A DNA stretch of 64,000 bases from Candidatus Levyibacteriota bacterium (GCA_963790825.1 CAWBPM010000002.1:231159-295158), one strand, 5' to 3'. Positions 20,734 to 36,896 are shown, counted from the first letter of the stretch. The notes: generated by a model from the sequence alone, not told the origin. Numbers and translations: made by a program.

Positions 20734-21807
20734 TCATCCTACTCTTTCTTTCTTTCTACAGAACAATACTACCGGAATTGCCAGAGAAGTAGCAGCTACT
20801 ACGATCGCGGCATCTTCGGATACGACCGCTCCAAAATTTGCCTGGTTTATTTCACGGGACAACTCACCCACGCGATCTACGTATTGATGCTGGTTTACGG
20901 GAATTTGTTCTTCAATTCTTTTAATTTGTTTTACCAGGGACTCTGCTTGTTGACCTGTAACTTTAGTGCCTTGGGAAATTTGATCCACAATTCCCATCAG
21001 ATCATCGGCGGACTTCTCATGATTTAAAGAATCTGAACCGGGAAAATCTGACACTGCTGCCTCGATATCCATGACAGCAGAGGTACCATCGTGGCTACTG
21101 GTAAGAGCACTTTGTGCATTATCCAAATTTTCAAAAACATTCTCCGCCAGTTGGGCTGTCATGGGACTGGGTAAGGAAGCTCGCTGATTTGCCAGATTTA
21201 CTGCAGTTTCGTGTGCAAGCATTGTGCCGCCGGTAAGGCTTAGTGCCAAACCGCTTGCAAGCACCACTTTTCCGGGAACACTATGGAGAAGTACATTCGC
21301 AGTTCGTTCCGGTAATGATAGCGTGTCACTCCATGCCTCTCTCCGGCTAAGAGCCCAACTTTTTGCTTTTTCGCAGGCAGCTCGTGTCAGCGATTCTTTA
21401 TTTCTCAACATTATTTCACTGGAAAGTAGGGCTGCCTCAATATTACGCCGATCTACAAAAAGCTTTAATCGCGGTTGTAATGATTCCTGATTATAAAAAT
21501 ATTTAACAACATCTCCTGCCAATCGTGTTTCCCTGGATGTCGGCATTTCAGTGGGTATTTGCAGATATTTCTCTGCTTCCGGCAATCTTTCCCAATCTTC
21601 AGGCTTTGTATTTAGGTAGTTAAGCAAATTTGCGGCATGATATAGTTCTCCAACCTCCGCACCGCTAACACCTTTAAGATGCTTATCCGTTTCAAATAAG
21701 TGAAACAAAACACTGACTGTACTGGTTAACTCAACACTTGTCGGAGGGCGATCTGAAAAACGTTGTTCTTTGTGTCTTCGATTTTTAAAAATTTCACTTT
21801 TACTCAT
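20734..21807 (-). CDS. Hypothetical tail-anchored protein (C-terminal TM), paralog of 21907..22989
   Basis: Shared blocks with its neighbour (FPGS...DLM-I--QIS-G-K-TGQQA-SL--QI---E-QI). C-terminal hydrophobic helix. Locally elevated GC. Confidence 0.5.
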   Translation of the reverse strand: MSKSEIFKNRRHKEQRFSDRPPTSVELTSTVSVLFHLFETDKHLKGVSGAEVGELYHAANLLNYLNTKPEDWERLPEAEKYLQIPTEMPTSRETRLAGDVVKYFYNQESLQPRLKLFVDRRNIEAALLSSEIMLRNKESLTRAACEKAKSWALSRREAWSDTLSLPERTANVLLHSVPGKVVLASGLALSLTGGTMLAHETAVNLANQRASLPSPMTAQLAENVFENLDNAQSALTSSHDGTSAVMDIEAAVSDFPGSDSLNHEKSADDLMGIVDQISQGTKVTGQQAESLVKQIKRIEEQIPVNQHQYVDRVGELSREINQANFGAVVSEDAAIVVAATSLAIPVVLFCRKKERVG

Positions 21808-21906
21808 AATAAGCTTAGAGTATAGCTGAACAGCTACAAAAAGTAAATGAACCTCCTGGTCTTACCGTCGCCTTTCCGTCCTCACTTCAAACCAGAACTG
21901 TAAAAT

Positions 21907-22989
21907 TTATCCGTTTTTTCTTCTTTTTGATTGCGAAAAATCCTTAAGAAAGTCTACGCCTAAAGTTCCTGCCAGAAGCGAAATTAAAAGTAGCCCAAAT
22001 GCCCCCGAATTCGCGTTTAGAATCTGGACATCCAGGTCATATGCCTGACGATAATATGCACTTTGACTGTCTTTGATTTGCTTCTCAACATTTGCAATTT
22101 GGCCCGTAAGAGAAGCTGCTTGTTGACCGGTTATTTTCCCATGCGAAGAAATTTGCCGCTCAATTTGCATAAGATCATTAGTAACCGGGGATGAACCGGG
22201 AAAATTTACAGCTGCGTCCTGAGTAGCAATGCTGGCAAGATCAGCACTGGGATTAAAATTTACAGCCCCACAAGTTTGTGGCTTAAGTGCGCAAACTGCA
22301 CTGTCCAGATCCGCTAGGGCATAGTCTTGGGCAGTTATTGCCGGGGTTATTTGGCTAGCTACTTGATTAATAAGCGTTTGCATATTGTTGCATTCTGCGA
22401 TAGAGCCGTAAAAACTGGCACCTGCTACAATTATGGAGGCAACGGCTCGTTTGGGAGTTATAGACAGAAGCGTCCCCGCCGTTTGTTTGGGAAAATCTAA
22501 GGCCTGTTGTATTCGTTGTCTACGGACTATAGCCGAATTCGCTTTTCTCACCTCTTCCGCTCTTGCCATCTCCTCCTTGACTGACAATTCCTGCTTTCGT
22601 GAGCATAATGCCGCTTCTATATTTTCCCGATCAAAAAGCGGAAAGGCATTAATTTCCGCGTCAGTCGATAAAACATAGCCCAAAACTTTTTCACTGGTTT
22701 TAACCGCTTCAAGCGTCGGATTAATATCAGGAACTTGTATATGCTGTAAATCCGCAGGCAGTCTATGCCATTCCTCGTTTGTTACCGGATATACCCGGTC
22801 AAAAGTTCTGTTCGCCCCGCCATATAATCCTTCCCAGTCCGAAGTTGTAAGGCGTTTATCCGTAGTAAGTAAATTATAATAAGTTCCGACAGCAGTTTCT
22901 AAATCATCCATAGTAGGAAACTTAGAAGAGAGAGAAGGGAAATTTTCACCCGGCTTTAGATTAGGACCGGCGCTTGGTATCTCGACCAT
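21907..22989 (-). CDS. Hypothetical tail-anchored protein, paralog of 20734..21807
   Basis: Same conserved blocks and C-terminal TM. Elevated GC. Confidence 0.5.
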   Translation of the reverse strand: MVEIPSAGPNLKPGENFPSLSSKFPTMDDLETAVGTYYNLLTTDKRLTTSDWEGLYGGANRTFDRVYPVTNEEWHRLPADLQHIQVPDINPTLEAVKTSEKVLGYVLSTDAEINAFPLFDRENIEAALCSRKQELSVKEEMARAEEVRKANSAIVRRQRIQQALDFPKQTAGTLLSITPKRAVASIIVAGASFYGSIAECNNMQTLINQVASQITPAITAQDYALADLDSAVCALKPQTCGAVNFNPSADLASIATQDAAVNFPGSSPVTNDLMQIERQISSHGKITGQQAASLTGQIANVEKQIKDSQSAYYRQAYDLDVQILNANSGAFGLLLISLLAGTLGVDFLKDFSQSKRRKNG

Positions 22990-23051
22990 ATTAAGCCTAA
23001 AGTATACTCGTATTTAAGCTAAAAGTAAACAAACTTTACATCACCAGACAA

Positions 23052-24026
23052 TCATTTGTTGTAAATACCTTTGGCATAATCCGGCAGTCCGCTAGCTATT
23101 TCGCGAAAAATGGCATCTGTAAATGATTTCGGCGTTACTTGTGTGGTTTCCTGAATACGAGCATAGAGATCTTCTATTTTTAACGGTAAGCCAAATTTTA
23201 CCTGTATTGGATTTACCTCCCGGGGATTCAGAGCGGAACGTATGCCTCTCAGCTTAAAAAAATTAGTATCCGGACTCCACACCCGGTACGATCCGTGTGT
23301 ACTGATCGGTATAAGCAAAACTTTATTATTCCTTTTTTTTGCAATTTCCATGATTAATTTAGCCGGTAATAGGCGGTCTTCCTCATGATTTTTATTGCTT
23401 TGTTTTACTGCACCCATACCGCAGATATTATTCCATACCGGATGTTTGGGATCTTTGTTTCTGCCTGCCTGAACCGAACCTTCGGGAAAAAAGAACAAAC
23501 CATAGCCCTCACCTGCGGCATGAAGTAATTGTCGCGCTATACCCAGATTATTTCCTTTCATCTGAAAATCATCATGGTCGCAGCTTCTCACCACGGGAAG
23601 TGTATATAAATTATGCCGTTCAAAATCGGGAGTCAGTAATTTATAAAATACCTCCAGGCCTTTTCCTTGGTCTCCGCGCTTGAGTGATGCTGCGATTGGT
23701 AAATAAAACCCTTTTAAGCCACCCCTGAGTGCCAGTATTTCCGCTTCTACAGCAGCTTCAGGACCGTTCAAATGTGCTTCATGATTCGATATACCAACAG
23801 GAACATATCCTGCTTTGACTGCGGGTTTATATACACCGTCAAATCCTTCTGCAAAGTGAAAGTCTGCTGTTTTTTCCACAAACGAATCCACCCAATCCAA
23901 GTCTGCTAACCTGTTTCCCATTTTTTCCAGACGCTTGTCGGTAAGAATACTGGTTGCTGCCCGCCATTTCCAGTCTACGATTTTTTTGGGCGGATATCTC
24001 TGTTGCGTTTCAATACATGTTGCCAT
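23052..24026 (-). CDS. Putative divergent acyltransferase (LPLAT/PlsC-like)
   Basis: GISNHEAHLNG (NH-x4 motif) and FFFPEGSVQAGR (FPEG-like motif). Weak assignment. Confidence 0.35.
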   Translation of the reverse strand: MATCIETQQRYPPKKIVDWKWRAATSILTDKRLEKMGNRLADLDWVDSFVEKTADFHFAEGFDGVYKPAVKAGYVPVGISNHEAHLNGPEAAVEAEILALRGGLKGFYLPIAASLKRGDQGKGLEVFYKLLTPDFERHNLYTLPVVRSCDHDDFQMKGNNLGIARQLLHAAGEGYGLFFFPEGSVQAGRNKDPKHPVWNNICGMGAVKQSNKNHEEDRLLPAKLIMEIAKKRNNKVLLIPISTHGSYRVWSPDTNFFKLRGIRSALNPREVNPIQVKFGLPLKIEDLYARIQETTQVTPKSFTDAIFREIASGLPDYAKGIYNK

Positions 24027-24105
24027 ACAGTCGAGATTATACTAGATCTTAACCTTCGTTTCCAGACACGGATTATATTTTAACAAGCAAGTTGAAAAGT
24101 GTGTA

Positions 24106-24134
24106 TTGACGATTATTTTTCGTACTACTAAGAT
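24106..24134 (+). promoter_or_regulatory. Sigma-70-like promoter: TTGACG, 17-nt spacer, TAAGAT, ending 6 nt before the ATG at 24141 (probably leaderless)
   Basis: Hexamers and spacing read directly. No SD before the ATG. Confidence 0.3.
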
Positions 24135-24140
24135 ATAAGT

Positions 24141-25997
24141 ATGCCCAAGTTTCATCTCGTTCAGCGAAAGATTAAACTTACTTCCGGTAAAAAATTGAGG
24201 ATAACCAGTATCCTGACACTGCTCTTTTTGCTGGCAATAATTCCCCTGACTGTTTCAATACTTGAAAAACAGCAGGAAATTCGTCAACACGCTGCCACTT
24301 CAACGGGTTGGTGGTTACGGGATATGGGAATGACGGCTGTTACTCATGATACGGTTTGTAATCAGGAAAGCCAAGCAAATATGACACGACTGGTCAGTTA
24401 TATTCCTCAGTTTCACGCTAACTTTGCTTCCGACGATGTGCCGCTCGATGGTTCTGGCAGCTATAATTGCACATTCGGACAGGGAAACGCACCGCTCCAG
24501 CCGTATCAGTATATGCTCAACTGGGCAAATACCATCCACGGGGCAGGACTGCACGTTATTTATCGGGGCAATTGGAATAATTTCGCCGGAGATTATGGAC
24601 AAGCAAAACTTTCATACAGCACCAGCCCTGCCATTTCATATGAATCCCCAGGCGGACTGTCTGCAGTATTAAATGGTACCGATACTACCAGTTATATCGG
24701 AAGAACATATCAATGGATTTTGAATCATCCGGGTATCTTTCAGGATGGCGACGTTTGGGAACCTTTCGGCGAGCCGCAAAATAACGGTATTACCAATGGT
24801 CCGGCAGGTACCTCGGCTGCGAATTGTCCTAAGAGTATTTGTCAATTTCCCTCCACTGCAGCTTTTAATCAGTGGTTAAGTGATTTCAGCCAAGCCGACC
24901 AGACAGCTTTTCGAGCAATTGGTAAAAATGTTACTTCAGGTTGGTTTGGTCTTGCCGGTGATTCATATACTTATGTCACTCCTTTGGCTATGAGCTACAG
25001 CAGCGCCTATAATATGGACCATTTTGCTCAGAGCTACAGCAACTTTACCAGTTTGATTGTGGATAGTCATAATGCGTTTCCCAACCTGCCCATGACTTTG
25101 GAGTGGGGAGATATTAATAGTGCCGACAATACGCCCCAGTTAGTTGCTAATACCACTGATCAGTATCTTGGTTGGCTGGTTCAACAATCCTATGTTAGCG
25201 GGTTTGAATACTGGTACGAATCAGGACAAGGTGCAGGAGCACAGTCTGCAGCAGTAGATTTTAATACCGGTCAAATGACTCCTGCCGGACAGATTGTAGA
25301 GAAATATTTTGCTATGGAAGAAACAAGTACTACTCCGACTCCTACAACTCTTGTGACACCGACATTTACTCCCACCCCAACTCCTAAACCAACCAGTAGT
25401 CCTACTCCATCTGTAATGCCCAGTGCAACTCCGACTCCTACTCCGCTACCGGGTACTACCACTCTCTCCTTCCCGGGTATTCTTCTGCACGGAATAGGCT
25501 CAGCCGGAGACTCGGTTGCCCCGGGAACTTCGGGGAATACAAGTCCTCTGACTCCCAATCGTACACTAAGCGTACAGGTAGTAAACGCAAGTAACGTTCT
25601 TGTTACTACTCTTTCAGGAACAATTACCTATTCTCCCTCCAGCGGGGGATTCTCAGGAAGTGTCAGTCTGGGAAGTACTGTTCCAACCGGTTCCTACTTA
25701 GTAAAGGTAAAGACTGATAAGTACCTGGTAAAACAACTCCCCGGTATTATTACACTTACTCAAGGACAAACTACTACCATTCCCCCTGTTTCTCTTATCG
25801 TAGGAGACATCAATAACGACAATACACTTAATATCCTGGACTACAATATACTCCTTGGTTGCTACTCAGACTTCCTTCCTCCTACCAGTTGTCCCGGAAC
25901 TAACGGAAAAGAGAGTGACCTTAACGATGACGGATCAGTCAATGCCTCTGACTACAACCTCTTCCTGAGAGAACTGTCTGTACAAAGTGGAGAGTAG
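24141..25997 (+). CDS. Secreted putative clan GH-A-like glycoside hydrolase with PT-linker, beta-sandwich and C-terminal dockerin
   Basis: Signal anchor. WEPFGEPQ (NEP-like) motif. C-terminal module identical to the next two genes, with dockerin repeats DINNDNTLNILD / DLNDDGSVNASD. Confidence 0.55.
   Translation: MPKFHLVQRKIKLTSGKKLRITSILTLLFLLAIIPLTVSILEKQQEIRQHAATSTGWWLRDMGMTAVTHDTVCNQESQANMTRLVSYIPQFHANFASDDVPLDGSGSYNCTFGQGNAPLQPYQYMLNWANTIHGAGLHVIYRGNWNNFAGDYGQAKLSYSTSPAISYESPGGLSAVLNGTDTTSYIGRTYQWILNHPGIFQDGDVWEPFGEPQNNGITNGPAGTSAANCPKSICQFPSTAAFNQWLSDFSQADQTAFRAIGKNVTSGWFGLAGDSYTYVTPLAMSYSSAYNMDHFAQSYSNFTSLIVDSHNAFPNLPMTLEWGDINSADNTPQLVANTTDQYLGWLVQQSYVSGFEYWYESGQGAGAQSAAVDFNTGQMTPAGQIVEKYFAMEETSTTPTPTTLVTPTFTPTPTPKPTSSPTPSVMPSATPTPTPLPGTTTLSFPGILLHGIGSAGDSVAPGTSGNTSPLTPNRTLSVQVVNASNVLVTTLSGTITYSPSSGGFSGSVSLGSTVPTGSYLVKVKTDKYLVKQLPGIITLTQGQTTTIPPVSLIVGDINNDNTLNILDYNILLGCYSDFLPPTSCPGTNGKESDLNDDGSVNASDYNLFLRELSVQSGE
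25366..25997. repeat. About 630-nt near-identical repeat, copy 1 (encodes PT-linker, beta-sandwich and dockerin)
   Basis: Direct nucleotide comparison with 27374..27995 and 29086..29715. Confidence 0.85.
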
Positions 25998-26015
25998 TAT
26001 ACTTATTATATATGT

Positions 26016-27995
26016 ATGTGTTTACATATTATCTTTAAAAAAATAAAATTGACACCAGGCAAAAATATTCGCTTAATTTCGCTTGGATCTTTGGTTCTGT
26101 TTCTAATTGTACTGCCAATTCTTATTATTAGTTTACAAACACGCCAAACCATCCATCAATACGCAAGTACAGTGCCAAATCTTCCTGATACAACCAACGG
26201 TATTCATTTCGGGCTGCCGTTTAATGCATGGGTTCCAGTCGTCAATGGCGTATTTCAGGAACAACCTGCCGAATATGTATTTGGTGCGAATAATAATGGA
26301 GTAGCAAACGTACCCGGTACAGCTCTCTGGCATGAGATATACACACCTTGGCAGCGGGAGAATGACGATCAAGGTAATAACAGAAACCTGGCTTGGTTCC
26401 AGACAAACCATCCTGACTGGATCATGTACGGACCGGATAAGAAGACTCCGGCTACTTGGGAAGGAGATAATTGCTGCGTCGTCCTCGACTACGCGAATCC
26501 TACTGTTCAATCTTGGGTTACCGCTATTCTTATCCATTGGCTCGGTCACGGTTATAATGGGATTTCGATTGACAACAGCGTGGATGACAATCAAACCAAT
26601 GCCGTGGGCCACTACACCTTGCCTGGCATCTCAGGCGGCACCTGGGTTGCTCAATATTCAGGCACTGAGCCTGGGGATACTGCCTGGGCTGCGGCAAGTG
26701 AAACAGCGCTGACCAATATCATTACTGCCGTTAAAGCGCAGTATCCGAACATTTCAGTTACTGTTAACCAGAATTATGTCTACAATTATATCAATCAGGC
26801 TGGGTTTGAGCAAAGCTTTAATGTAGCTACCGGCACATTGGATGAGGGATATTTGTGGTGGGCGACAAAGAATGACAGTACTGCATGGCTCAACACGATG
26901 ACCGAGTACAGGCATATGCAACGTGATTTGGCTAAAAGTCTTTTTTTGATCAATGCTTCATCCTACACTATGACTACGAACATGACTACTTCAAGCATGA
27001 CTGCAAGGGCCGATGTACAGTTGGCATTGGCAAATTATCTGCTCATTAAGTATAACCACACTTATTTTTGGTTCGGGATGACAGGTGCAAGTGCTTCCTC
27101 GCCAGGACAGTACGGCCAACCAATAGCTATGCAGTCTGAATATAGCGCTCCAATCGGTTCGCCAATCAATGACTTCTACGCTTCGCAAAATGTCTACATG
27201 CGTAACTATACTAACGGATTGGCAATCGTCAATCCGGACACTAGCTCACATAGCTTAACCTTTCCCAGCGGACAATACAAGGATCTATACGGTAATGCAA
27301 TTACAACCTATACAATGCAATCCCATTCCGGTCTTATTTTACTGCTTACTTCTTCTCCAACTCCAACAAATACCCCAACTCCTAAACCAACCAGTAGTCC
27401 TACTCTATCTGTAATGCCCAGTGCAACTCCGACTCCTACTCCGCTACCGGGTACTACCACTCTCTCCTTCCCGAGTATTCTTCTGCACGGAATAGGCTCA
27501 GCCGGAGACTCGGTTGCCCCGGGAACTTCGGGGAATACAAGTCCTCTGACTCCCAATCGTACACTAAGCGTACAGGTAGTAAACGCAAGTAACGTTCTTG
27601 TTACTACTCTTTCAGGAACCATTACCTATTCTCCCTCCAGCGGGGGATTCTCAGGAAGTGTCAGTCTGGGAAGTACTGTTCCAACCGGTTCCTACTTAGT
27701 AAAGGTAAAGACTGATAAGTACCTGGTAAAACAACTCCCCGGTATTATTACACTTACTCAAGGACAAACTACTACCATTCCCCCTGTTTCTCTTATCGTA
27801 GGAGACATCAATAACGACAATACACTTAATATCCTGGACTACAATATACTCCTTGGTTGCTACTCAGACTTCCTTCCTCCTACCAGTTGTCCCGGAACTA
27901 ACGGAAAAGAGAGTGACCTTAACGATGACGGATCAGTCAATGCCTCTGACTATAACCTCTTCCTGAGAGAACTGTCTGTACAGAGCGGAGGATAA
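26016..27995 (+). CDS. Secreted GH114-like (TIM-barrel GHL) glycoside hydrolase with C-terminal dockerin module
   Basis: VVLDYANPTVQSWVTAILIHWLGHGYNGISIDNSVDD resembles the GH114/GHL signature. The shared C-terminal dockerin module is present. Confidence 0.5.
   Translation: MCLHIIFKKIKLTPGKNIRLISLGSLVLFLIVLPILIISLQTRQTIHQYASTVPNLPDTTNGIHFGLPFNAWVPVVNGVFQEQPAEYVFGANNNGVANVPGTALWHEIYTPWQRENDDQGNNRNLAWFQTNHPDWIMYGPDKKTPATWEGDNCCVVLDYANPTVQSWVTAILIHWLGHGYNGISIDNSVDDNQTNAVGHYTLPGISGGTWVAQYSGTEPGDTAWAAASETALTNIITAVKAQYPNISVTVNQNYVYNYINQAGFEQSFNVATGTLDEGYLWWATKNDSTAWLNTMTEYRHMQRDLAKSLFLINASSYTMTTNMTTSSMTARADVQLALANYLLIKYNHTYFWFGMTGASASSPGQYGQPIAMQSEYSAPIGSPINDFYASQNVYMRNYTNGLAIVNPDTSSHSLTFPSGQYKDLYGNAITTYTMQSHSGLILLLTSSPTPTNTPTPKPTSSPTLSVMPSATPTPTPLPGTTTLSFPSILLHGIGSAGDSVAPGTSGNTSPLTPNRTLSVQVVNASNVLVTTLSGTITYSPSSGGFSGSVSLGSTVPTGSYLVKVKTDKYLVKQLPGIITLTQGQTTTIPPVSLIVGDINNDNTLNILDYNILLGCYSDFLPPTSCPGTNGKESDLNDDGSVNASDYNLFLRELSVQSGG
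27374..27995. repeat. Near-identical repeat, copy 2
   Basis: Nucleotide identity with copies 1 and 3. Confidence 0.85.
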
Positions 27996-28050
27996 GTAAT
28001 TAGGATAGCCTTGACACTCTTCTTAGTAATACACTACTATTTATATAATT

Positions 28051-29715
28051 ATGAAAAGTAAAAGAAAGAAGAAATACTCAATCTTTCTTAGTATAATTAT
28101 AGTTTTTTTTCTCCTCCTTGCAGCTGTCCTTGCCGTCTGGTACTCACAAAAACAACAACATGTAAATCAATATGCAGCAACAAGCGCCTCCCCTTCAGGA
28201 GAAGACATGCCGGTTGGTGATTTACCCGGCTGGCATCAGATCTTCACTGATGATTTTACAACCAACGTTACAGTGCCTAACTTCTTCAGTGTGTATGGTA
28301 ACAGGTGGCGCAGTTATGGTGATGGTGTATCCGATACTAGCGGTAATGGGCGTCGCTACGACACGCAAGTTCTCTCAGTCACTAACGGCATCCTCAATAT
28401 TTATATACATACGGCACTCGTCAATGGTACATATGTGCACATGGTTGGTTCACCAGTACAAGTTTTATCTCCATGGGATCCTAATTGTAAAACAGTTAAT
28501 GGCACTGGTTGTTGGCCAGGTCAACTTTATGGTCGCTACAGTATCCGTATGCGCGCAGACCTGTTGTCCAATTATAAGACGGCTTTTTTGCTTTGGCCTC
28601 AATCCCAGAACTGGTCATATGATGGAGAAATTGATTTCCCAGAATCACTGCATGATTTAACAGGTCCAATCAATGCGGCAGTATGGTGGGAATATGGTAA
28701 CTATGCGGATGACGATCAAAATTGGTGGACAGTTACCGGCTCAGGTTTCTACAATAATTGGCACACATATACCATTGACTGGACCCCGAACGCGATCGTC
28801 TACTACATTGATGGAGATGTGGTCGAAAACTTTTCTGGCAGCATCGCAACGTGGTCTGACGGTCGCTCTAAAATACCCAACACCCCTATGTACTGGGTTC
28901 TACAGACGGAAACCCAGCTTACTCCAATTGTCAATCCAGCTAACAATATAGCAGGCAACGTACAGGTTGATTGGGCAGCAGCATATTCATATTCTCCACC
29001 TACCACTGGGACACCTGTTACCCCGACTCCCAGTGTAAAGCCTACCCCTTCAACAAAACCTAGTGCAATACCAACCCCGACTTACACTCCCACCCCAACT
29101 CCTAAACCAACCAGTAGTCCTACTCCATCTGTAATGCCCAGTGCAACTCCGACTCCTACTCCGCTACCGGGTACTACCACTCTCTCCTTCCCGAGTATTC
29201 TTCTGCACGGAATAGGCTCAGCCGGAGACTCGGTTGCCCCGGGAACTTCGGGGAATACAAGTCCTCTGACTCCCAATCGTACACTAAGCGTACAGGTAGT
29301 AAACGCAAGTAACGTTCTTGTTACTACTCTTTCAGGAACCATTACCTATTCTCCCTCCAGCGGGGGATTCTCAGGAAGTGTCAGTCTGGGAAGTACTGTT
29401 CCAACCGGTTCCTACTTAGTAAAGGTAAAGACTGATAAGTACCTGGTAAAACAACTCCCCGGTATTATTACACTTACTCAAGGACAAACTACAACCATTC
29501 CCCCTGTTTCTCTTATCGTAGGAGACATCAATAACGACAATACACTTAATATCCTGGACTACAATATACTCCTTGGTTGCTACTCAGACTTCCTTCCTCC
29601 TACCAGTTGTCCCGGAACTAACGGAAAAGAGAGTGACCTTAACGATGACGGATCAGTCAATGCCTCTGACTACAACCTCTTCCTGAGAGAGTTATCTGTA
29701 CAAAGTGGCCAGTAA
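28051..29715 (+). CDS. Secreted GH16 beta-glucanase with PT-linker, beta-sandwich and C-terminal dockerin
   Basis: GEIDFPE catalytic motif (E-x-D-x-x-E), FLLWPQS, HTYTIDWTPNAIVYYIDG. The dockerin module is present. Confidence 0.8.
   Translation: MKSKRKKKYSIFLSIIIVFFLLLAAVLAVWYSQKQQHVNQYAATSASPSGEDMPVGDLPGWHQIFTDDFTTNVTVPNFFSVYGNRWRSYGDGVSDTSGNGRRYDTQVLSVTNGILNIYIHTALVNGTYVHMVGSPVQVLSPWDPNCKTVNGTGCWPGQLYGRYSIRMRADLLSNYKTAFLLWPQSQNWSYDGEIDFPESLHDLTGPINAAVWWEYGNYADDDQNWWTVTGSGFYNNWHTYTIDWTPNAIVYYIDGDVVENFSGSIATWSDGRSKIPNTPMYWVLQTETQLTPIVNPANNIAGNVQVDWAAAYSYSPPTTGTPVTPTPSVKPTPSTKPSAIPTPTYTPTPTPKPTSSPTPSVMPSATPTPTPLPGTTTLSFPSILLHGIGSAGDSVAPGTSGNTSPLTPNRTLSVQVVNASNVLVTTLSGTITYSPSSGGFSGSVSLGSTVPTGSYLVKVKTDKYLVKQLPGIITLTQGQTTTIPPVSLIVGDINNDNTLNILDYNILLGCYSDFLPPTSCPGTNGKESDLNDDGSVNASDYNLFLRELSVQSGQ
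29086..29715. repeat. Near-identical repeat, copy 3
   Basis: Nucleotide identity with copies 1 and 2. Confidence 0.85.
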
Positions 29716-29767
29716 AGCAAATTAAAATAATTTATCAATTTTCCATAAATTCCAAACTGGAAAACAT

Positions 29768-31036
29768 GTGTTATACTTTTTATACATGAATGACACAGAT
29801 ATTGTATATCCCGATTATACAAATTCACTTGTCAATGTTCCTCATTCCGTTCTTTCACATTTTAATTTACCCCACAGAAAACCTGCATTAAATACACTGT
29901 TACTTCGTCAAATTAAAGCCTGTCCTAAACTTATCCTCTTTCTTATTGATGGTTTCGGATACAACTTGTATAAAAGCGAAGCAGTAAAGTTTCCCTTCTA
30001 TAAAAACATAGATAAAAACGGTTTGTGCGAAAAAATAACCAGCGTTTTTCCCTCAACGACTGCTGCAGCGATAACCTCGATCAATACCGGACTAACGCCA
30101 ATTGAACATGGACTCTTAGAATGGAATTTATATTTTCGAGAAATTGATGCAATTATGCAGCCTCTTCCTTATAAAATAGTCGCTACCGAATTTCATAGCA
30201 AACCAATTACAATACCGGAAAGCACTAAATTCTTGTTTGATGATAAAACTATTTATCAGATACTCGCCCAAAATACTATTCCATCATTTTATTTTATCCC
30301 AAAAACATTAACAGGTTCTGTCTATACTAAATTAGTAGCAAGTGGTGCAAAAATAATAGCGTATGTGTCCATTGTCGATCTGCTGATTGCGCTTCGCACA
30401 ATAATTCAAGAAACCAGCGCTAAAGCATATTGTTATGTTTACTGGGAAAGTATTGATACACAAGAGCACGTATATGGTCCACGGGCGGAGCAGACACAAG
30501 GAGAGATCGCTTTATTTGCAGAAATGATACAGAAAGAGTTTATCGATAAACTTGATAAAGCTAACGCAAATGATACAGCACTGCTAATAACAGCTGATCA
30601 TGGACAAACGACCATTAATTCTACTAAGGCAATCTACTTAAATGATTATCCGCAAGTAACGAAAAACTTTAAAAAAAGCAAAACAGGACTACCGATTCTT
30701 CCGATAGGAAGCCCCCGTGATGTTTTTCTTCACATAGAAGAGGGTAAGGTCGATGAAGTAGTTGCCTCTTTACAACAAGTTGTGAAAGATACAGCAGAAA
30801 TAATAAAACTTAACCGAGAAACAATTGCAAAATTATTCGCTAATGAAAAACCTCATCCGGAATTTTTCAACCGGCTGGGGAATATTTTAATTCTTCCCAG
30901 AGTTCCCCAGGCAATATGGTATAAATATCTCCCTACCAGCACAGTTGAATTTAAAGGAAATCATGGAGGACTAACAACTGACGAAATGTATATTCCCTTT
31001 ATCGCCGCAAAAATTTCCCAGCTGCAAACTTTGTAG
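29768..31036 (+). CDS. Alkaline-phosphatase-superfamily metalloenzyme (type I phosphodiesterase / nucleotide pyrophosphatase-like)
   Basis: LIDGFGY, FPSTTAAA (nucleophile Thr region), TADHGQ and GNHGG motifs. Confidence 0.6.
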   Translation: MLYFLYMNDTDIVYPDYTNSLVNVPHSVLSHFNLPHRKPALNTLLLRQIKACPKLILFLIDGFGYNLYKSEAVKFPFYKNIDKNGLCEKITSVFPSTTAAAITSINTGLTPIEHGLLEWNLYFREIDAIMQPLPYKIVATEFHSKPITIPESTKFLFDDKTIYQILAQNTIPSFYFIPKTLTGSVYTKLVASGAKIIAYVSIVDLLIALRTIIQETSAKAYCYVYWESIDTQEHVYGPRAEQTQGEIALFAEMIQKEFIDKLDKANANDTALLITADHGQTTINSTKAIYLNDYPQVTKNFKKSKTGLPILPIGSPRDVFLHIEEGKVDEVVASLQQVVKDTAEIIKLNRETIAKLFANEKPHPEFFNRLGNILILPRVPQAIWYKYLPTSTVEFKGNHGGLTTDEMYIPFIAAKISQLQTL

Positions 31037-31131
31037 ATAAACCTTGGTACGCCCAAGTTATAGAATATCGAAAGCTTTTGGATGCTATGTCAAAAATATA
31101 TCTTAGAAATCAGGGTTGAAGAAGAAGATGT

Positions 31132-33060
31132 TTATTGTCTTAGACTACCCCATTCAACAACAGTAAGTCCCTTTCTTGATGGTACTTGTGAAAAAGTAAA
31201 AGGCTGAACTACAGTTGGCTTCTGAAGTGGTTTATACTCCATCATTATCCGAATAAATGTATCGGGTCTAGGAGTAATCTCCAGCGGCACTAGTTGATTT
31301 AAAGTTTCAGTCTGATAGAAAGTTATAAAATAATAGGGGGATGAGTTAAAGGAAGACAACCATGCATGCATAAAATCACCTGCTTCCTTTATATTTAGTC
31401 CTAACTTAGGTAAAACTTGTTCAAATAATCCTTTTACCTCATTTGCCTTCACGACAAATCCATCATCTCTCTTTGGGTAAAAGGTAGAATATCCCTCCCA
31501 GAAAAGATACGGATAACTAATAGTATCGTCCAGATTTACAATATTACCGTTAGGCGATGCGGATACAATCCACCCCATATTATATTCAGGTAAAGTAGAG
31601 GTAAGATGAACTATATCCCCAAACTTAATTGAAACATTTTCAGTTTTTTGAGGGTACAGATATATGATCGGCTCACACTCTGAAGGTGGTATAAGATTTT
31701 GATTTGATAATCTGATGTATCTGCCGAGCGGATCTTTCCAGATAAGAATTGGGTACTGAGAAGAAAATGAGCTATATGTCTGGGGAGTCGGATAGTCAAT
31801 AACATATGGTTTATTTGCTGTTGTCTCATCCATATAGTTATTATAAAAATTAACAATGAGTGGATTATTGAGATCTTTCAACCCATAAATTGCATCACCT
31901 GAGTTCTTAACTGTTCCTAATTGAATCAAATCAGCAGCAGAAATTTTACTTGGATCAATTACACCTATTTCATCAAAAGTTTCTTCTGCGCAATCACCCG
32001 CAGATTTAGTAGAGTAATTTGAACTAACAACGACCCCTGTATTCCAATTTATTTTACTCGAATCAAAAAGACTGCTTCTATTTTCGGTTTTGAAAAACGG
32101 AGGAGCGTATGTATACAGTAGGTATGTCCCGTCAGGACGGAAAACAAAAAAAGCGTTATTAGTATAACATGCAGTATTATGGCAATATCCAATACCTCCG
32201 GACGAGGGAATCTCCATTGAGTTTTTTGTAACAATACCCGCATAGAAAGATCCTTGCGGACTTAAACCTGGTTTTGTGGTGTATATTTTACCCAAAATAG
32301 GATCGGTGAATACAGGCATAAGAAGAGTTGCATCAAGTGTCCCGTCCTGTTCAGAATCTCCATAGTCCAACGTCATTGCAGGATTTACCTCACTTAGGTG
32401 AGTGGGGTATTCAAGGACAGGTATTGTAGAAGCATTATCAATTATCTCTGGTATACCAGTTTTGTTAAAAAGAGCTTGTGACATCATTGATACAGGTGGA
32501 AGATACGAATCGGGTCCTCCATTAACTTTGTCTTGAGATATTCTTGGCAGAAAAACTATAGTATTGTCTAATTTAATATATCTATCTATATTGTCTTGCG
32601 AACATGCATCACTTTTACATCTTCCACCACCCACATTAGTATCTACATCTACAAGATCTCCCCCTTGATATTTTCCTCCTACTATTTTTCCAACCCTATA
32701 AAACGCATAATTACCATCCCAAAATTCTATAGTTACAGAAGCACTTACGGTTGCAATTAGTTTTCTTTGCGAAAAATTAACATTGAGAATATTCGTTGAT
32801 ATTCCAGTCGGCTTTAATCTTAATGTAGGATTATTTAGCTGATTAATGGAGTTTTGTGAGTGCTTTGTATAAAAATAATAACTAAAGAATGCAATAATGA
32901 CCGATACGAAGACAGTGAACAACAAAATAAGAATTCTTTTAGAAAGGTTTTGAGAGTTAGTTTTTTGTGATATCAATGGCTGCTCTGCATTATCTACAGA
33001 AGATTCAATAGATTGATTAGAAACTTGAGTAGGTGATTGATCAAAGTTATCTGCTACCAT
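31132..33060 (-). CDS. Large membrane-anchored extracellular protein, unknown function
   Basis: Single N-terminal TM after a polar N-terminal stretch. 640 aa, no recognised motif. Confidence 0.45.
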   Translation of the reverse strand: MVADNFDQSPTQVSNQSIESSVDNAEQPLISQKTNSQNLSKRILILLFTVFVSVIIAFFSYYFYTKHSQNSINQLNNPTLRLKPTGISTNILNVNFSQRKLIATVSASVTIEFWDGNYAFYRVGKIVGGKYQGGDLVDVDTNVGGGRCKSDACSQDNIDRYIKLDNTIVFLPRISQDKVNGGPDSYLPPVSMMSQALFNKTGIPEIIDNASTIPVLEYPTHLSEVNPAMTLDYGDSEQDGTLDATLLMPVFTDPILGKIYTTKPGLSPQGSFYAGIVTKNSMEIPSSGGIGYCHNTACYTNNAFFVFRPDGTYLLYTYAPPFFKTENRSSLFDSSKINWNTGVVVSSNYSTKSAGDCAEETFDEIGVIDPSKISAADLIQLGTVKNSGDAIYGLKDLNNPLIVNFYNNYMDETTANKPYVIDYPTPQTYSSFSSQYPILIWKDPLGRYIRLSNQNLIPPSECEPIIYLYPQKTENVSIKFGDIVHLTSTLPEYNMGWIVSASPNGNIVNLDDTISYPYLFWEGYSTFYPKRDDGFVVKANEVKGLFEQVLPKLGLNIKEAGDFMHAWLSSFNSSPYYFITFYQTETLNQLVPLEITPRPDTFIRIMMEYKPLQKPTVVQPFTFSQVPSRKGLTVVEWGSLRQ

Positions 33061-33153
33061 ACTATGATAGTAGTTCAGTTATAGGGCAAAATACAAGTAT
33101 TATTAAGTGCGTAGATTAGAAAGCCTGCTATCCGTAGCTTTAGCGAAGGATAG

Positions 33154-33177
33154 TACGCCTGGAGGGACTTGAACCCC
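33154..33177 (-). repeat. 24-nt direct repeat of the 3' end (T-arm plus acceptor) of tRNA-Arg; putative attL of an islet integrated at the tRNA
   Basis: tacgcctggagggacttgaacccc is identical to 35646..35669 in the same orientation. Confidence 0.6.
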
Positions 33178-33211
33178 TGGTAGTTCATTTTAGCAAGTTG
33201 ATGGGTGAGTA

Positions 33212-33655
33212 TCAAGAATAAGAAGACATGAACTGTTTGTAATCTTTAAGTGATACTACATTAATATCTTTTACTTTTCCTTGATGTTTCATATTATCAG
33301 TAACTAACGTTGCATTATATTGTTTTGCCAGTGAAATAAAAGATGCATCGTAATAAGTAATATTTGTGTCTAAAGCGATTGCGTATGTTTCTTTAGCAAG
33401 TTCCTCAGATTCTGTAATAAATGTAATTGGTAACGAATAAAGAGTGTTTAAAGTAATGCGTGCTTCCGCTAGCGTTAACTGTTTACCTTTTAACAATACA
33501 TTTCCTAATTCATATTTTGCCAATTCTGGAGCTATAAGTTCAACCTCATATAGGAATGTTTTATTTAAAATGTTATCTGCATCTTCAACGTTTTGTTCAT
33601 TAGATTGATTGACCCACTTGGTTATAACAGAGGAATCAATAACTAAAGTTTTCAT
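33212..33655 (-). CDS. vapC: PIN-domain ribonuclease toxin (VapC)
   Basis: VIDSSV (Asp7) ... YDASF ... TDN acidic residues of the PIN fold. Upstream AbrB-type partner. Confidence 0.8.
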   Translation of the reverse strand: MKTLVIDSSVITKWVNQSNEQNVEDADNILNKTFLYEVELIAPELAKYELGNVLLKGKQLTLAEARITLNTLYSLPITFITESEELAKETYAIALDTNITYYDASFISLAKQYNATLVTDNMKHQGKVKDINVVSLKDYKQFMSSYS

Positions 33656-33660
33656 GTTAT

Positions 33661-33918
33661 TTAGTGAGATTGGCGGTCAGCGGTCAAAAATTCTGCAGTG
33701 CTCAATTTACCTTTACCCTTAATCATTCTTGATTTATTTATTTTTCCCCAGATTATTTCTTTATCAATTATTTGACTATGAGGTCTAATAATAATTTCAT
33801 CAGGTTTCGAGATAGAGATAGTTACAGCTGACATAGGACCAATCCAATTTACAATTCTTCGAATTGAATCGGGAATGGTTAACTGACCTCTGTCTCGTAC
33901 TATACTTACTGCTTTCAT
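33661..33918 (-). CDS. vapB: AbrB/MazE-fold antitoxin (VapB-like)
   Basis: MKAVSIVRDRGQLTIPDSIRR swapped-hairpin motif. Directly upstream of the PIN gene. Confidence 0.7.
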   Translation of the reverse strand: MKAVSIVRDRGQLTIPDSIRRIVNWIGPMSAVTISISKPDEIIIRPHSQIIDKEIIWGKINKSRMIKGKGKLSTAEFLTADRQSH

Positions 33919-34084
33919 ATTTTCAGATTATCATACTTTCTGATTTTAGTCAAGAGAACAAAGAGTTTAAATCCCTCTAGCATCAACAACATCTTGAGGC
34001 CGGAGAATTAATACCGAATATTTGAAGAAGAAATGTCGATTAGCCCATTATATCAATCTATTTGACGTATTGAAAACAATAGCA

Positions 34085-34105
34085 TCCCTTTTGGTACCCC
34101 TGGTG
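34085..34105. promoter_or_regulatory. Conserved about 25-nt motif (tcccYtttggtacccc-N-ctggt) upstream of the DinJ/YafQ-like operon; second copy at 34821..34845
   Basis: Direct comparison of the two upstream regions. Confidence 0.35.
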
Positions 34106-34179
34106 CAAATTGCTTTGAACCCCTTCTAAGCCATTTCCAAACCTTACAAAAAGTCTACCTTTTTCGCTATTGACAAATT

Positions 34180-34479
34180 ATGTATGAATACAATAATTTA
34201 CATATGGCAACAATTAATATTTCCTTACCACAAAGCATGTACGATGATGCCAAAAAGGTATTAATAAAGAATCGTTACGCATCAATTAGTGAGTTGATGA
34301 GAGACGCACTTCGTCGTATCCTTTATCAAGATGTTACTGAAAATGGTTTTACTACTCAGTTTGAAAGTCAAATACTTCAAGCTGCTGCAGATTCTGTTGA
34401 TAATGATTTAATCTTAGAAACATCAGAAGATATAAATAATTATTTTAAGAATTTAAAGATTTCTCCAAAGAAGAAATAG
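34180..34479 (+). CDS. RHH (CopG/DinJ-like) antitoxin
   Basis: N-terminal ribbon-helix-helix pattern (TINISLPQSMYDDAKK). 2-nt gap to the toxin gene. Confidence 0.55.
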   Translation: MYEYNNLHMATINISLPQSMYDDAKKVLIKNRYASISELMRDALRRILYQDVTENGFTTQFESQILQAAADSVDNDLILETSEDINNYFKNLKISPKKK

Positions 34480-34481
34480 AT

Positions 34482-34757
34482 ATGGTTAAGATTACATTGG
34501 GAAGAGGCTTTCAAAAAGAATATTCAGATTTAATAAAAGAGCATCCAGAATTAAAAGAAGTAGCAGCTACAAAAGTATCCGTATTTCAAAATAATCCCCA
34601 AGATACTCGACTAAGGAATCATGCATTAAAGACAAGATTAGCCGGGAAATATGCCTTTAGTATTACACAAGATATTAGAATTGTTTATGAACATTTAGGG
34701 GAGACTACTGTAAGATTTATTGCAATTGGAACACACTGGCAACTCTATGGAAAATAA
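34482..34757 (+). CDS. YafQ/RelE-family mRNA interferase toxin
   Basis: NHALK...GKYAFSITQDIRIVYEHLGETTVRFIAIGTHWQLY is similar to the YafQ C-terminus (GTH..L). Confidence 0.65.
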   Translation: MVKITLGRGFQKEYSDLIKEHPELKEVAATKVSVFQNNPQDTRLRNHALKTRLAGKYAFSITQDIRIVYEHLGETTVRFIAIGTHWQLYGK

Positions 34758-34820
34758 TATTATCAACATATTGTTCATTACCTCTATATCACGTAATTCT
34801 TGATCCGAAGATCAAGAGTG

Positions 34821-34845
34821 TCCCCTTTGGTACCCCATCTGGTAC
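34821..34845. promoter_or_regulatory. Second copy of the conserved upstream motif, before the BrnTA operon
   Basis: tcccctttggtaccccatctggtac, compared with tcccttttggtacccctggtg at 34085. Confidence 0.35.
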
Positions 34846-34943
34846 GATGTTCGGACCTATCTAGCCTCAAATATTGACTCAAACTACATCACTTTCCTAA
34901 TGACCACATTCAATAAATGTAACAAGAAAGGAAACGGGGACGC

Positions 34944-35342
34944 ATGAGCTGGTTTAGGAAACCAAGAACAGTAAGCGAATATCTCCCTGGATACTTCTCT
35001 ATTTTAAATTATGATATATTTACATTTGATATTAAATGTGATATGACTAATATGATGAAATACTTTGATTGGGACAAAGAAAAGAACAAAAAGCTGAAGC
35101 AAGATAGAGGTGTTTCATTCGAAGAAATTGTTATTGCAATAAAAGAGAATAGAGTTATAAAGATAACCAATCATCCAAACAGAAAATGTTATCCAAATCA
35201 AAAAATCTTTATTCTAGAAATACATAATTACGCATATCTTGTTCCTTTTGTGGAGGATGACCAAAAAGTATTATTTAAGACAATTATTCCAAACAGACAG
35301 GCGACAAAAAAATATATAAGAAAGGAGGCGAAAAGAAAATGA
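34944..35342 (+). CDS. brnT: BrnT-family (DUF497) ribonuclease toxin; real start probably the internal MMKYFDWD at about 35022
   Basis: KYFDWDKEKNKKLKQDRGVSFEEIVIAI matches the BrnT signature (F-WD-KN...HGVsFeE). Confidence 0.65.
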   Translation: MSWFRKPRTVSEYLPGYFSILNYDIFTFDIKCDMTNMMKYFDWDKEKNKKLKQDRGVSFEEIVIAIKENRVIKITNHPNRKCYPNQKIFILEIHNYAYLVPFVEDDQKVLFKTIIPNRQATKKYIRKEAKRK

Positions 35343-35599
35343 AATATTTCATATTAAGCGATGAAGAACAACAAATACTAGAAGCGTATGAAAAAGGTGA
35401 ACTTGTTTCTGTTCCCGATCTTGATAAGGAAAAAAAACGCTATCAAGCAATTGCGACAGCTACGTTAAACAAAACAAATAATATTAACATCCGTTTATCA
35501 GAAAAAGACCTTCAAAAGGCAAAGGTCAAAGCTATTGAGTCTGGTATTCCTTACCAGACGCTTATTAGTTCTGTAATTCACCGTTTTGTCAATGAATAG
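35339..35599 (+). CDS. brnA: BrnA-like antitoxin
   Basis: INIRLSEKDLQKAKVKAIESGIPYQTLISSVIHRFV is the C-terminal BrnA motif. 4-nt overlap with brnT. Confidence 0.65.
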   Translation: MKYFILSDEEQQILEAYEKGELVSVPDLDKEKKRYQAIATATLNKTNNINIRLSEKDLQKAKVKAIESGIPYQTLISSVIHRFVNE

Positions 35600-35645
35600 G
35601 GAAAACACATACAGCAGTCAAACGACTACATATTATAGGCTTGTG

Positions 35646-35719
35646 TACGCCTGGAGGGACTTGAACCCCCGACCCCTTCGTCCGAAGCGAAGTGCTCTAA
35701 TCCGCTGAGCTACAGGCGC
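35646..35719 (-). tRNA. tRNA-Arg (anticodon TCG)
   Basis: Manual cloverleaf: GCGCCUG acceptor with G1-U72 wobble, GCTCAGCGGATTAGAGC D-arm, anticodon loop CUUCGGA, GGGTTCAAGTCCC T-arm. Confidence 0.8.
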
Positions 35720-35819
35720 GAATGGAAACACCTGTTATTTTATAGTAATCAGGAGAGAAACTCAAATTGAGTAATGAATAAGTCACGATACATATTGGAA
35801 TCTTAAGGAAGAAGATTCT

Positions 35820-36848
35820 ATGCCAAGTGATTTTAAACGAGTAAGACATTTACGACCAAAATACTCACAAAAGAGCTATCATATACTGATGAAAATGCTC
35901 CAGAATTCATTAGCAGTTGAAGTATCCGATGTAGCTGCTTTTCGCCTTCACGTGATTAATCACTACTACAAGTATGGACTGCGTCCAACCCTTGCTGCAT
36001 TCAAAATAAAGAAGAGCAGCTTATACAACTGGAGAAATGCTTATGAACACAACGGAAAAAGGACAATCAGTTTAGTGCCACACGGAACTAGACCTCTCCA
36101 TGTGCGAAAGATGGAGACAGACTGGAGAATAATTGAGTTCATTAGAGAGATGAGGCATGAGCATGGGAATATTGGTAAAAGTATGCTCAAGCCCTTTGTT
36201 GATGCGTATGCCAAAGAGCTGGGTATTAAGACCTTGGCAGAAAGTACTATTGGGAAAGTACTTAAAAGACGTCACTTAACATTTGAGAAGAAAGTCTACC
36301 CACAGAAACAAAAAAACAAGTTCAAAAAGCTAAGAGTGAGAAAGTCTCCTAAGGTAGTTTCTCCTGGATTTATTGAGATGGATTCAGTAGTTGTCTATAT
36401 CAATTTTGAGAAACATTTGTTTATGTGTGTGATTGATATTTACACAAAATTTGCCTTAGTTGTATATGTACCGGATCTCTCCTCAGTAACAGCAAGAGAG
36501 GTTTTTAAGCAGTTCCAGTGCAATAATCCAACACCGATTCATACAATCCAAACAGATAATGGATCAGAGTTTCTCAAATCATTCCATGAGTATATAGTTG
36601 AACAGAAAATTAAACATCAATTTATCTATCCCAGAATGCCAAAGATTAATAGTTACATTGAGAGATTCAATCGGACAATCCAGGAGGAATTCATTTTAAG
36701 AAATGACGAGATTTACTATGACTCAGAAGCATTTGCAAAAAAGCTCACAAAGTATTTATACTGGTATAACTATAAGAGGCCACATGCTTCGCTTAAATAT
36801 ATGTCGCCTATGTCCTTTATACAAGCCAAGATTCCAATAAGTGCGTGA
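35820..36848 (+). mobile_element. IS481-family-like DDE transposase (rve integrase core) ORF; IS ends not resolved
   Basis: N-terminal HTH-like region. DDE core with QTDNGSEF and YNYKRPHASL motifs. Single about 340-aa ORF is typical of IS481. Flanking inverted repeats could not be identified by eye. Confidence 0.75.
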
Positions 36849-36896
36849 CGCATACAAGTAAATGAAGTAATAAATATTTCTGCTATACTAAATTTA

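Follow-up and report, generated by a model that had tools for sequence, protein, structure and literature searches.

A tRNA-Arg(TCG) gene in a Candidatus Levyibacteriota genome is followed by a 2.5-kb islet that carries three toxin-antitoxin (TA) gene pairs and no intact integrase gene. The islet (positions 33178-35644) lies in a 64 kb stretch (GCA_963790825.1, CAWBPM010000002.1:231159-295158), hereafter the window, to which all unlabeled coordinates refer. Sequence comparison suggests, with a probability of roughly 60%, that the islet is a composite of TA cassettes that came along with, or were moved by, serine-integrase elements. This reading is based upon an exact repeat of the tRNA end at the far boundary of the islet, the trailer attached to that orphan copy, and two homologous seam elements between the cassettes, in which serine recombinase remnants stand beside attP-like sites. 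The window was analyzed together with fetched loci, labeled here with L-numbers, giving 197 tRNA genes in all. The HlyD-like protein encoded next to the tRNA assigns the window, part of a 751-kb contig, to Candidatus Levyibacteria (Patescibacteria), and the closest sampled relative was only 68% identical in this protein.

A direct repeat of the tRNA end bounds the islet

The features at the two boundaries were as follows.

35645..35719, minus strand: intact tRNA-Arg(TCG), the putative integration target (ARAGORN; Rfam tRNA, 65.7 bits)
35645..35669, minus strand: proximal repeat copy, the 3' end of the working tRNA, with islet DNA after it (exact repeat)
33153..33177, minus strand: orphan repeat copy, a tRNA gene (tDNA) fragment at the distal boundary of the islet (exact repeat)
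33119..33152, minus strand: trailer on the orphan copy, TATCCTTCGCTAAAGCTACGGATAGCAGGCTTTC in tRNA sense (31/34 match to L004)

The plus-strand sequence GTACGCCTGGAGGGACTTGAACCCC was found at 35645-35669 and again at 33153-33177, with 25/25 identity, in direct orientation and with 2467 nt between the copies. A first-pass annotation of this DNA had described an exact repeat in the same orientation, and this held, except that the repeat is 25 nt long rather than 24 and starts at 33153 rather than 33154. In tRNA sense it spans most of the 5' T-stem strand (four bases of five) and the T-loop, then the 3' strands of the T-stem and of the acceptor, and lastly the discriminator base with one extra base. 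Identity ends sharply on the inner side, without residual similarity to the remaining tRNA, and neither ARAGORN nor Rfam detected a second tRNA at the orphan copy. With up to 3 mismatches tolerated, these two copies were the only matches in the 64 kb, and none of 100 dinucleotide shuffles gave any match. The concern that the 24-mer might recur at many unrelated positions was not borne out, as the window holds only the two copies.

Among the 197 tRNA genes, an orphan exact repeat of the 3' end (at least 15 nt) downstream of the gene was unique to this one. An intact tRNA gene with a same-orientation 3' fragment downstream, the arrangement by which Islander recognizes tRNA-integrated islands, is therefore present. 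The integrase gene that Islander also expects inside the interval was not found in Pfam scans of the islet open reading frames (ORFs), and only serine recombinase fragments of ~20 codons lie there.

Searches beyond the window returned little. The 24-mer scan of viral contigs recovered a phage tRNA-Met only. A longer, 40-nt tRNA-Arg pattern recovered 15 loci in genome contigs, and the scan of metagenome contigs recovered 44, all of them single intact or end-truncated tRNAs. Comparison of the islet DNA with phage and plasmid records matched the tRNA alone, which was also the only family that Rfam found on the islet.

The orphan copy and its trailer

L004 is a distant Patescibacteria contig (ABC ATPase 51% identical) that shares the divergent HlyD-ABC-permease neighbors of tRNA-Arg. 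Behind its intact tRNA-Arg(TCG) stands, in the same register, TATCTTTCGCTAAAGCTACAGATAGCAGGCTATC, which shares 31 of 34 bases with the trailer of the orphan copy; between the two trailers one stem pair is changed on both sides, from C-G to T-A. The flank of the working tRNA (35600-35644) is unlike the L004 trailer. Since the L004 trailer continues the orphan copy, the orphan looks like the original gene end, displaced by insertion, and the arrangement looks like what an insertion that rebuilt the tRNA end would predict. The repeat thus behaves as the attL/attR footprint that the first-pass annotation took it to be. In L022 and L025 the tRNA-Arg is flanked directly by housekeeping genes, without a recombinase gene.

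L001 (Logan ERR11594402), a contig from an independent assembly of the same organism, encodes exactly the 642-aa protein flanking the islet. The contig stops inside the tRNA (window ~35692), at the point from which it cannot be told apart from the tRNA-Arg of a relative in the same sample (L018/L019). The break is probably an assembly-graph branch and gives no indication of an empty-site variant. No relatives of the 642-aa protein were found in the genome collection.

The trailer belongs to a hairpin family in which a 14-nt loop, TTCGCTAAAGCTAC, is conserved, whereas the 5-bp stems vary from copy to copy yet stay complementary. Copies were located at window 33119-33152, at 6785-6818 of L004 and at 528-546, 793-811 and 851-868 of L072. 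The hairpins stand directly after tRNA genes; in L072 they follow tRNA-Gly, bracketing a small GIY-YIG nuclease gene, with a further copy shortly after it. The family was not detected by Rfam, and the folding energy of the trailer was no better than that of shuffled sequence.

Seam elements between the cassettes

Two elements of ~110 nt each, termed seam elements A and B, separate the first TA cassette from the second and the second from the third. Their extents were set with an nhmmer nucleotide profile.

34013..34129, plus strand: seam element A, a serine recombinase 3' remnant with an attP-like site (nhmmer)
34012-34065, plus strand: recombinase remnant of seam A, reading YRIFEEEMSISPLYQSI, then stop
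34094-34095 (GT), with arms at ~34068-34093 and 34096-34121, plus strand: attP-like site of seam A, anchored on GT
34757..34865, plus strand: seam element B, more decayed and homologous to A (nhmmer)
34830-34831 (GT), with the right arm at 34832-34857 and the left arm at ~34802-34829, plus strand: site of seam B, anchored on GT

The intergenic regions 33919-34203 and 34758-35051 align over ~145 nt with a score of 54, compared with a null of 25.8 +/- 3.7 that reached this score in none of 500 dinucleotide shuffles. In L078 the element is found on both sides of a homologous VapBC cassette: one copy ~130 nt upstream of vapB, like element A, and the other 42 nt downstream of vapC, in the place held by the orphan 25-mer in the window. 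Furthermore, the BrnT homologue in L079 has a related element upstream of it. Because the seams are homologous and flank TA cassettes in other candidate phyla radiation (CPR) genomes too, the islet appears to be composite and not one decayed element. The earlier description of a decayed island is kept for its integrase-less TA cargo, and the homology of A and B argues against a single simple element. On the opposite strand, element A contains an extended -10 promoter-like site (TG-n-TATAAT) that faces vapB, ~130 nt upstream of its start. The possibility that A and B are decayed copies of the tRNA end from serial tyrosine-type integration was considered and dropped, the alignments being non-significant.

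Serine recombinase remnants and their full-length homologues

Each seam includes the last ~20 codons of a large serine recombinase gene, as a readable 3' remnant in A and a more decayed one in B. Inspection of the short ORFs of the seams by eye revealed nothing recombinase-like until the nucleotide model gave the right frame. The seam profile matches L020 at 1393-1471, where an ORF encoding Resolvase, Recombinase and Zn_ribbon_recom domains has its 3' end. This large serine recombinase ORF runs convergently up against the tRNA-Arg(TCG) of L020, which is intact and syntenic, and meets it at the tRNA 3' end; the HlyD neighbor in L020 is 63% identical. A 52%-identical recombinase, found with a conserved-block pattern, converges into a tRNA-Phe(GAA) in the viral contig L086 (IMG/VR), where the recombinase ORF (7509-9164) overlaps the tRNA 3' end (tRNA at 7581-7654). 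Four of the five matches to the conserved-block pattern looked like chance.

A profile built from the orphan elements only (two from the window, two from L078 and one from L079) recovered both recombinase 3' ends, with E values of 5e-6 for L086 and 1e-3 for L020. Element A ends in ...SISPLYQSI before its stop, where the L086 recombinase reads ...EISPLYQSIRAF and that of L020 ...QFSPQYQAILDV; longer readings are ...GLSNTEISPLYQSIRAF... for L086 and ...GLSNQQFSPQYQAILDV... for L020. The residues ISPLYQSI of element A are identical in the L086 recombinase. The two L078 copies read ...SISPIYQAI... and ...AISPIYQPILD..., each with in-frame stop codons before it. The recombinase is a serine integrase of the usual phage type, with 24-27% identity to annotated ones, and peptide patterns revealed no close relative of the L020 recombinase in viral contigs.

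Recombinases were screened by Pfam scans of window ORFs of at least ~190 aa and of the islet ORFs. No tyrosine or serine recombinase domain was detected in the window ORFs of this length, and tyrosine recombinases, whole or fragmentary, were absent from the window ORFs scanned and from the islet. The first-pass statement that no integrase remains is hence correct for an intact gene, but seams A and B do hold serine recombinase remnants beside attP-like sites. It suggested a search for a tyrosine integrase; the remnants point to a serine integrase instead, and the window ORFs scanned contained no tyrosine recombinase. A putative attachment site adjoining a Resolvase/Recombinase/zinc-ribbon gene is present in L020 and L086, and the window has 3' remnants of such a gene.

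An attP-like site with a 5-nt offset

Positions in the putative attachment-site arms were counted from the GT common to all sites (within GTAC or GTGAC in the elements, and in the last bases of the tRNA). On this scale GRAC starts at arm position 22 in 5/5 orphan elements and at position 17 in 5/5 tRNA ends (among them those of the window, L004, L020 and L086) as well as in the orphan 25-mer. In serine integrase sites the motif bound by the zinc ribbon lies 5 bp closer to the center in attB than in attP (Rutherford et al., PMC3783163). The same 5-bp shift of the distal motif between attP-type and attB-type half-sites was observed here, across five elements that are mutually homologous. The arms vary widely in sequence but keep their length, which suggests a spacing constraint. 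In element B, the arms show dyad symmetry about the GT (GATCTTCGGATC / GATGTTCGGACC; 10/12, p 0.007), and in element A the symmetry is borderline (9/12, p 0.06). Taken from sequence, these features suggest that the site of ~50 bp beside the remnant is attP-like, with one arm that mimics the tRNA acceptor and T-arm and is 5 nt longer.

Toxin-antitoxin cassettes

The islet encodes three two-gene cassettes.

33212-33655, minus strand: VapC (PIN) toxin, cassette 1 (Pfam PIN, E 2.6e-12)
33661-33918, minus strand: VapB-like antitoxin of 85 aa, cassette 1 (weak AbrB/PrlF/SpoVT-type matches, E 0.007-0.6)
34204-34479 (longest ORF from 34180), plus strand: ribbon-helix-helix (RHH) antitoxin, cassette 2 (Pfam RHH_1, 17 bits, below the cut-off)
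34482-34757, plus strand: YafQ/RelE toxin, cassette 2 (Pfam YafQ_toxin, E 8e-9, above the cut-off)
~35043-35342 (longest ORF from 34944), plus strand: BrnT toxin, cassette 3 (Pfam BrnT_toxin, E 8e-7)
35339-35599, plus strand: BrnA (CopG/RHH) antitoxin, cassette 3 (Pfam CopG_antitoxin, 27.2 bits against a cut-off of 28)

Each cassette consists of adjacent toxin and antitoxin genes with the corresponding family domains, as in type II TA systems, and their function as such is predicted. The three pairs proposed earlier (VapBC, RHH-YafQ/RelE and BrnTA) were confirmed, and the pairings recur in other Patescibacteria. The 85-aa VapB-like partner gave matches to PrlF (E 0.007), to TIGR01439 AbrB (E 0.017) and to a SpoVT structure (E 0.63). 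It probably has an AbrB/SpoVT fold, and it precedes VapC in L072, L074 and L078 as well. VapC homologues with 60-70% identity are widespread in Patescibacteria and usually have 139-140 aa, compared with 147 aa in the window copy. The C-terminus of the latter runs ~8 residues beyond its relatives (33212-33235), and this extension stops 35 nt short of the orphan tRNA fragment, which gives the impression of a gene end remodeled at the junction.

For the second cassette, the RHH antitoxin had sub-threshold NCBIfam matches to ParD and NikR N-terminal models, and the toxin matched TIGR02385 RelE_StbE with 35.5 bits (cut-off 27.9). For the third, the Pfam score of BrnT was just below its cut-off (29.7 against 34.5 bits); the source annotation gives this protein 99 aa, and homologues with 60-73% identity occur in many Patescibacteria. 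The BrnT/BrnA gene pair is also present in L079 and L081-83. In the window, the stop codon of BrnA lies 45 nt from the tRNA 3' end.

The G+C content of the islet was 0.27-0.35, compared with 0.36-0.45 nearby. Homologues of the TA genes are otherwise stand-alone modules in unrelated contexts. Several of them lie 50-1500 nt downstream of a tRNA, with no tRNA repeat beside any of these, and no relatives of the three toxins were found in viral contigs. L018 likewise has TA genes downstream of tRNA-Arg/tRNA-Lys, and no significant tRNA remnants were detected near them.

In other Patescibacteria, TA cassettes were often seen a short way downstream of a tRNA 3' end, in some cases separated from it by a small GIY-YIG gene. 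Examples are L072 (455-1668: tRNA-Gly, GIY-YIG, VapBC), L079 (7001-9073: tRNA-Arg(TCT), GIY-YIG, hydrolase, BrnTA) and L081 (6876-7557: tRNA-Ala, then BrnTA 48 nt on).

Origin of the islet and alternative explanations

A history compatible with these features would begin with incoming DNA that supplied a replacement tRNA 3' end, by which the original end with its native trailer would have been pushed 2.5 kb away, surviving as the orphan 25-mer. The islet would be a stack of three two-gene TA cassettes, and seams A and B would be scars left by elements that relied on a large serine recombinase. In serine integrases, attP half-sites are expected to differ from attB half-sites in just the way that the tRNA-mimicking arm does with its 5-nt excess. 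The recombinase genes would since have been lost or have decayed to stubs, and the TA pairs would have persisted, plausibly because loss of an addiction module is counter-selected. Such an islet would be immobile by itself and could at most be moved by a recombinase supplied from elsewhere. The junction of an empty site would read ...GCTTTAGCGAAGGATAGTACGCCTGGAGGGACTTGAACCCCCGACCCCTTCGTCC... and that of an excised circle ...CATATTATAGGCTTGTGTACGCCTGGAGGGACTTGAACCCCTGGTAGTTCATTTTAGC.... From sequence comparison we infer that the recombinase family recombines at tRNA ends, as well as the order of events and the reason for TA persistence; the outer repeat may be the work of a serine or of a tyrosine integrase. 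A bolder extension, which we regard as speculative and rather unlikely, is a CPR cassette system in which a large serine integrase supplied in trans targets tRNA 3' ends and inserts, stacks and shuffles TA cassettes, each with its own attP-type site of ~50 bp that imitates the tRNA acceptor and T-arm at a 5-bp offset. It would work like an integron with an enzyme of a different family, and the islet would be a resident array and more than debris.

Several observations weigh against the composite, serine-integrase reading of the islet. The outer repeat has the spacing of a real tRNA and 25 nt of perfect identity, the classic T-stem look of tyrosine integration, whereas the bases shared after serine integration are normally few. 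At the junction next to the tRNA (35600-35644) there is no recombinase remnant, the similarity of A and B to the tRNA end was non-significant in local alignments to the tRNA and to both junctions, and dyad symmetry was significant for B only, that of the other elements being non-significant. As the five orphan elements are mutually homologous, a single ancestral event may account for their constant +5 offset. The genes on the far side of the tRNA-Phe in L086 look phage-like (ERF, replisome organizer, VRR-NUC), so the tRNA-Phe may be phage-borne and not a host target; no second copy of the tRNA-Phe end was found in this contig. L004 is distant, and the hairpin family of the trailer is also found after other tRNAs (L072), so the trailer match proves less than a true orthologous empty site would. 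No empty site was found in a close relative, and L018, the closest, is not syntenic on that side. Finally, none of the 44 metagenome and 15 genome loci held another integrase-bearing island with the 25-nt repeat.

The alternative that goes with the first-pass annotation is a single tyrosine-integrase element that entered the T-stem/T-loop and then lost all but three TA pairs, the seams being old baggage of its cargo. A tDNA fragment that starts in the T-stem is the usual signature of tyrosine integrases, and a repeat running from the T-stem to the 3' end belongs to their common 'J' class, which accounted for 1836 of 3919 Islander islands; serine integrases were stated in 2014 as not known to target tRNA genes (PMC4383910). 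The repeat also has exactly the tRNA spacing needed for rebuilding a working tRNA, and the ends of the islet are without a recombinase remnant. Against this stand the lack of any tyrosine recombinase or fragment in the window ORFs scanned and in the islet, and the tight fit of the cargo: only 45 nt separate the end of BrnA from the tRNA, and 35 nt that of VapC from the orphan, so the loss of an integrase must have left no trace at either end. The recombinase traces in the islet are of serine type only, as is the sole recombinase found at this tRNA in a relative (L020). We therefore consider a tyrosine-integrase origin unlikely, although it retains some weight. Another interpretation dispenses with recombination at the seams altogether and takes A and B as conserved promoter or leader regions of the TA operons, with their likeness to recombinase ends an incidental overlap. 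The extended -10-like site in A does face vapB, a homologous element stands at the same distance upstream of vapB in L078, and an element lies upstream of brnT both in the window and in L079. A promoter role fits poorly with the second L078 copy, downstream of vapC and pointing at a convergent gene, and with element B, whose promoter-like side faces the end of yafQ. The element also precedes unrelated operons, one antitoxin-first and one toxin-first, and the orphan-only profile matched exactly the 3' ends of two recombinase genes that adjoin tRNAs, where a peptide can be read in frame. These points make the promoter interpretation improbable.

A very improbable origin for the orphan 25-mer is that it is the last piece of a second, decayed tRNA, or the result of a local duplication or rearrangement in a plastic region. 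The region has indeed been rearranged, with tRNA-Arg and tRNA-Lys(CTT) 18.2 kb apart in the window and adjacent in relatives, and L039 and L046 each have a whole tRNA-His/tRNA-Arg pair in duplicate, 2.5 kb apart. Against this origin, identity is perfect over 25 nt and ends abruptly, with the rest of the tRNA unmatched. An att fragment would be expected to have the orientation of the orphan and to lie, like it, downstream of the tRNA 3' end, and only mobile-type TA cassettes, of lower G+C, lie between the copies.

Genomic neighborhood

In the window and in relatives, tRNA-Arg lies next to an HlyD-ABC-permease operon, and to the right of the tRNA the gene order HlyD, ABC ATPase, permease, DUF2079, Mrr and IMS polymerase is conserved. 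Synteny is lost to the left. Seven related loci have tRNA-Lys(CTT) beside tRNA-Arg(TCG); the distance between the two is 4-409 nt in L007, L010, L017, L018, L022 and L025, and 18.2 kb in the window, where tRNA-Lys(CTT) is at 17385-17458. The intervening 17459-33152 encodes three glycosyltransferases, three unknown proteins, three dockerin-domain glycoside hydrolases, a phosphodiesterase and the 642-aa orphan protein of unknown function. An older island or a rearrangement may account for this segment, whose end is not marked by a tRNA repeat. Another type of insert with tRNA boundaries was seen in two unrelated metagenome contigs, in which the whole tRNA-His/tRNA-Arg(TCG) pair is duplicated ~2.5 kb apart (L039, 1078-1248 and 3657-3822; L046, 623-793 and 3202-3367). 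Elsewhere in the window, two adjacent paralogous genes encode AbiEii-type nucleotidyltransferase toxins (type IV TA/abortive infection; 1236-1892 and 2208-2867), suggesting that this genome segment is generally rich in TA and defense genes.

Beyond the tRNA lies one further mobile element.

35775..36856, plus strand: complete IS481-family insertion sequence (IS), outside the islet (domains, inverted repeats, target duplication)

The IS sits 55 nt upstream of the 5' end of the tRNA and contains an rve-domain gene at 35820-36848. This gene has rve, rve_3 and HTH domains, and its best NCBIfam match was IS481, aligned over the full length with 155 bits against a cut-off of 224. Imperfect inverted repeats of ~29 nt (35775-35804 and 36828-36856) bound the element, and a 5-bp target duplication, AGTAA, flanks it at 35770-74 and 36857-61. 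A DDE (rve) transposase between inverted repeats with a target duplication is as expected of the IS481 family. The IS481-like neighbor noted in the first-pass annotation is thus present, but as an independent, complete IS with its own target duplication, unrelated to the islet. The tRNA-HlyD gap contains no IS in L013, L003, L011, L022 and L025. A different rve gene, 27% identical, occupies the same gap in L018 (8289-9398), so the gap may be a preferred IS target.

Significance and comparison with known systems

A small integrase-less TA islet at a tRNA is by itself routine genome archaeology. The new value lies in the seams, which appear to tie TA cassettes in several Patescibacteria genomes to a single large serine recombinase family, the genes of which abut tRNA 3' ends. 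If this family does target tRNA genes, the known target range of serine integrases would widen, the spread of TA modules in small, phage-exposed CPR genomes would have an explanation, and compact integrases would be at hand whose target, the end of a tRNA gene, is present in every cell.

The islet resembles tRNA-anchored islands of the Islander/TIGER type (Williams's T-stem 'J' class) in that an intact tRNA and a same-orientation 3' fragment starting in the T-stem bracket foreign DNA (PMC4383910). It differs in having no integrase gene, by which it would fail the Islander filter, in its size of only 2.5 kb and in its exclusively serine-type traces. In tycheposons, serial integration at tRNA genes leaves partial tRNAs and integrase fragments, and large serine recombinases are present in 27 of the 937 elements studied, a set made up of tycheposons and cryptic elements (bioRxiv 10.1101/2020.12.28.424599). 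As in these Prochlorococcus elements, which are stacked at one tRNA with the older ones pushed inward and partial tRNAs and fragmented integrases left behind, the islet would be a stack with recombinase debris. It differs in its host (Patescibacteria/Levyibacteria), in its TA-only cargo and in having attP-like seams in place of exact partial tRNA copies.

Cis-mobilizable elements (CIMEs) of streptococci are integrase-less and flanked by att sites, and they derive from integrative and conjugative elements with tyrosine integrases. The islet is comparable in being bounded by att-like sequences without recombination genes, and by analogy it might be moved by an integrase acting in trans. With integrons it shares small cassettes, often TA, arranged in series and each separated by a related element that looks like a recombination site. 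Its elements are tied to the end of a serine recombinase gene, unlike those of integrons, and there are three cassettes only; no tyrosine recombinase of the IntI kind was found in the window ORFs scanned, and no attI/attC-type structure was seen.

The characterized large serine integrases, to our knowledge, target protein-coding or intergenic sites and not tRNA ends, and the outer 25-nt repeat of the islet is longer than serine integrases normally leave. The seams resemble the sites of large serine integrases such as those of A118/LI, Bxb1 and phiC31 in that a remnant of the gene end adjoins the site, the site is ~50 bp long with partial dyad symmetry, significant for B only, and its distal motif sits 5 bp farther out than in the bacterial target (PMC3783163).

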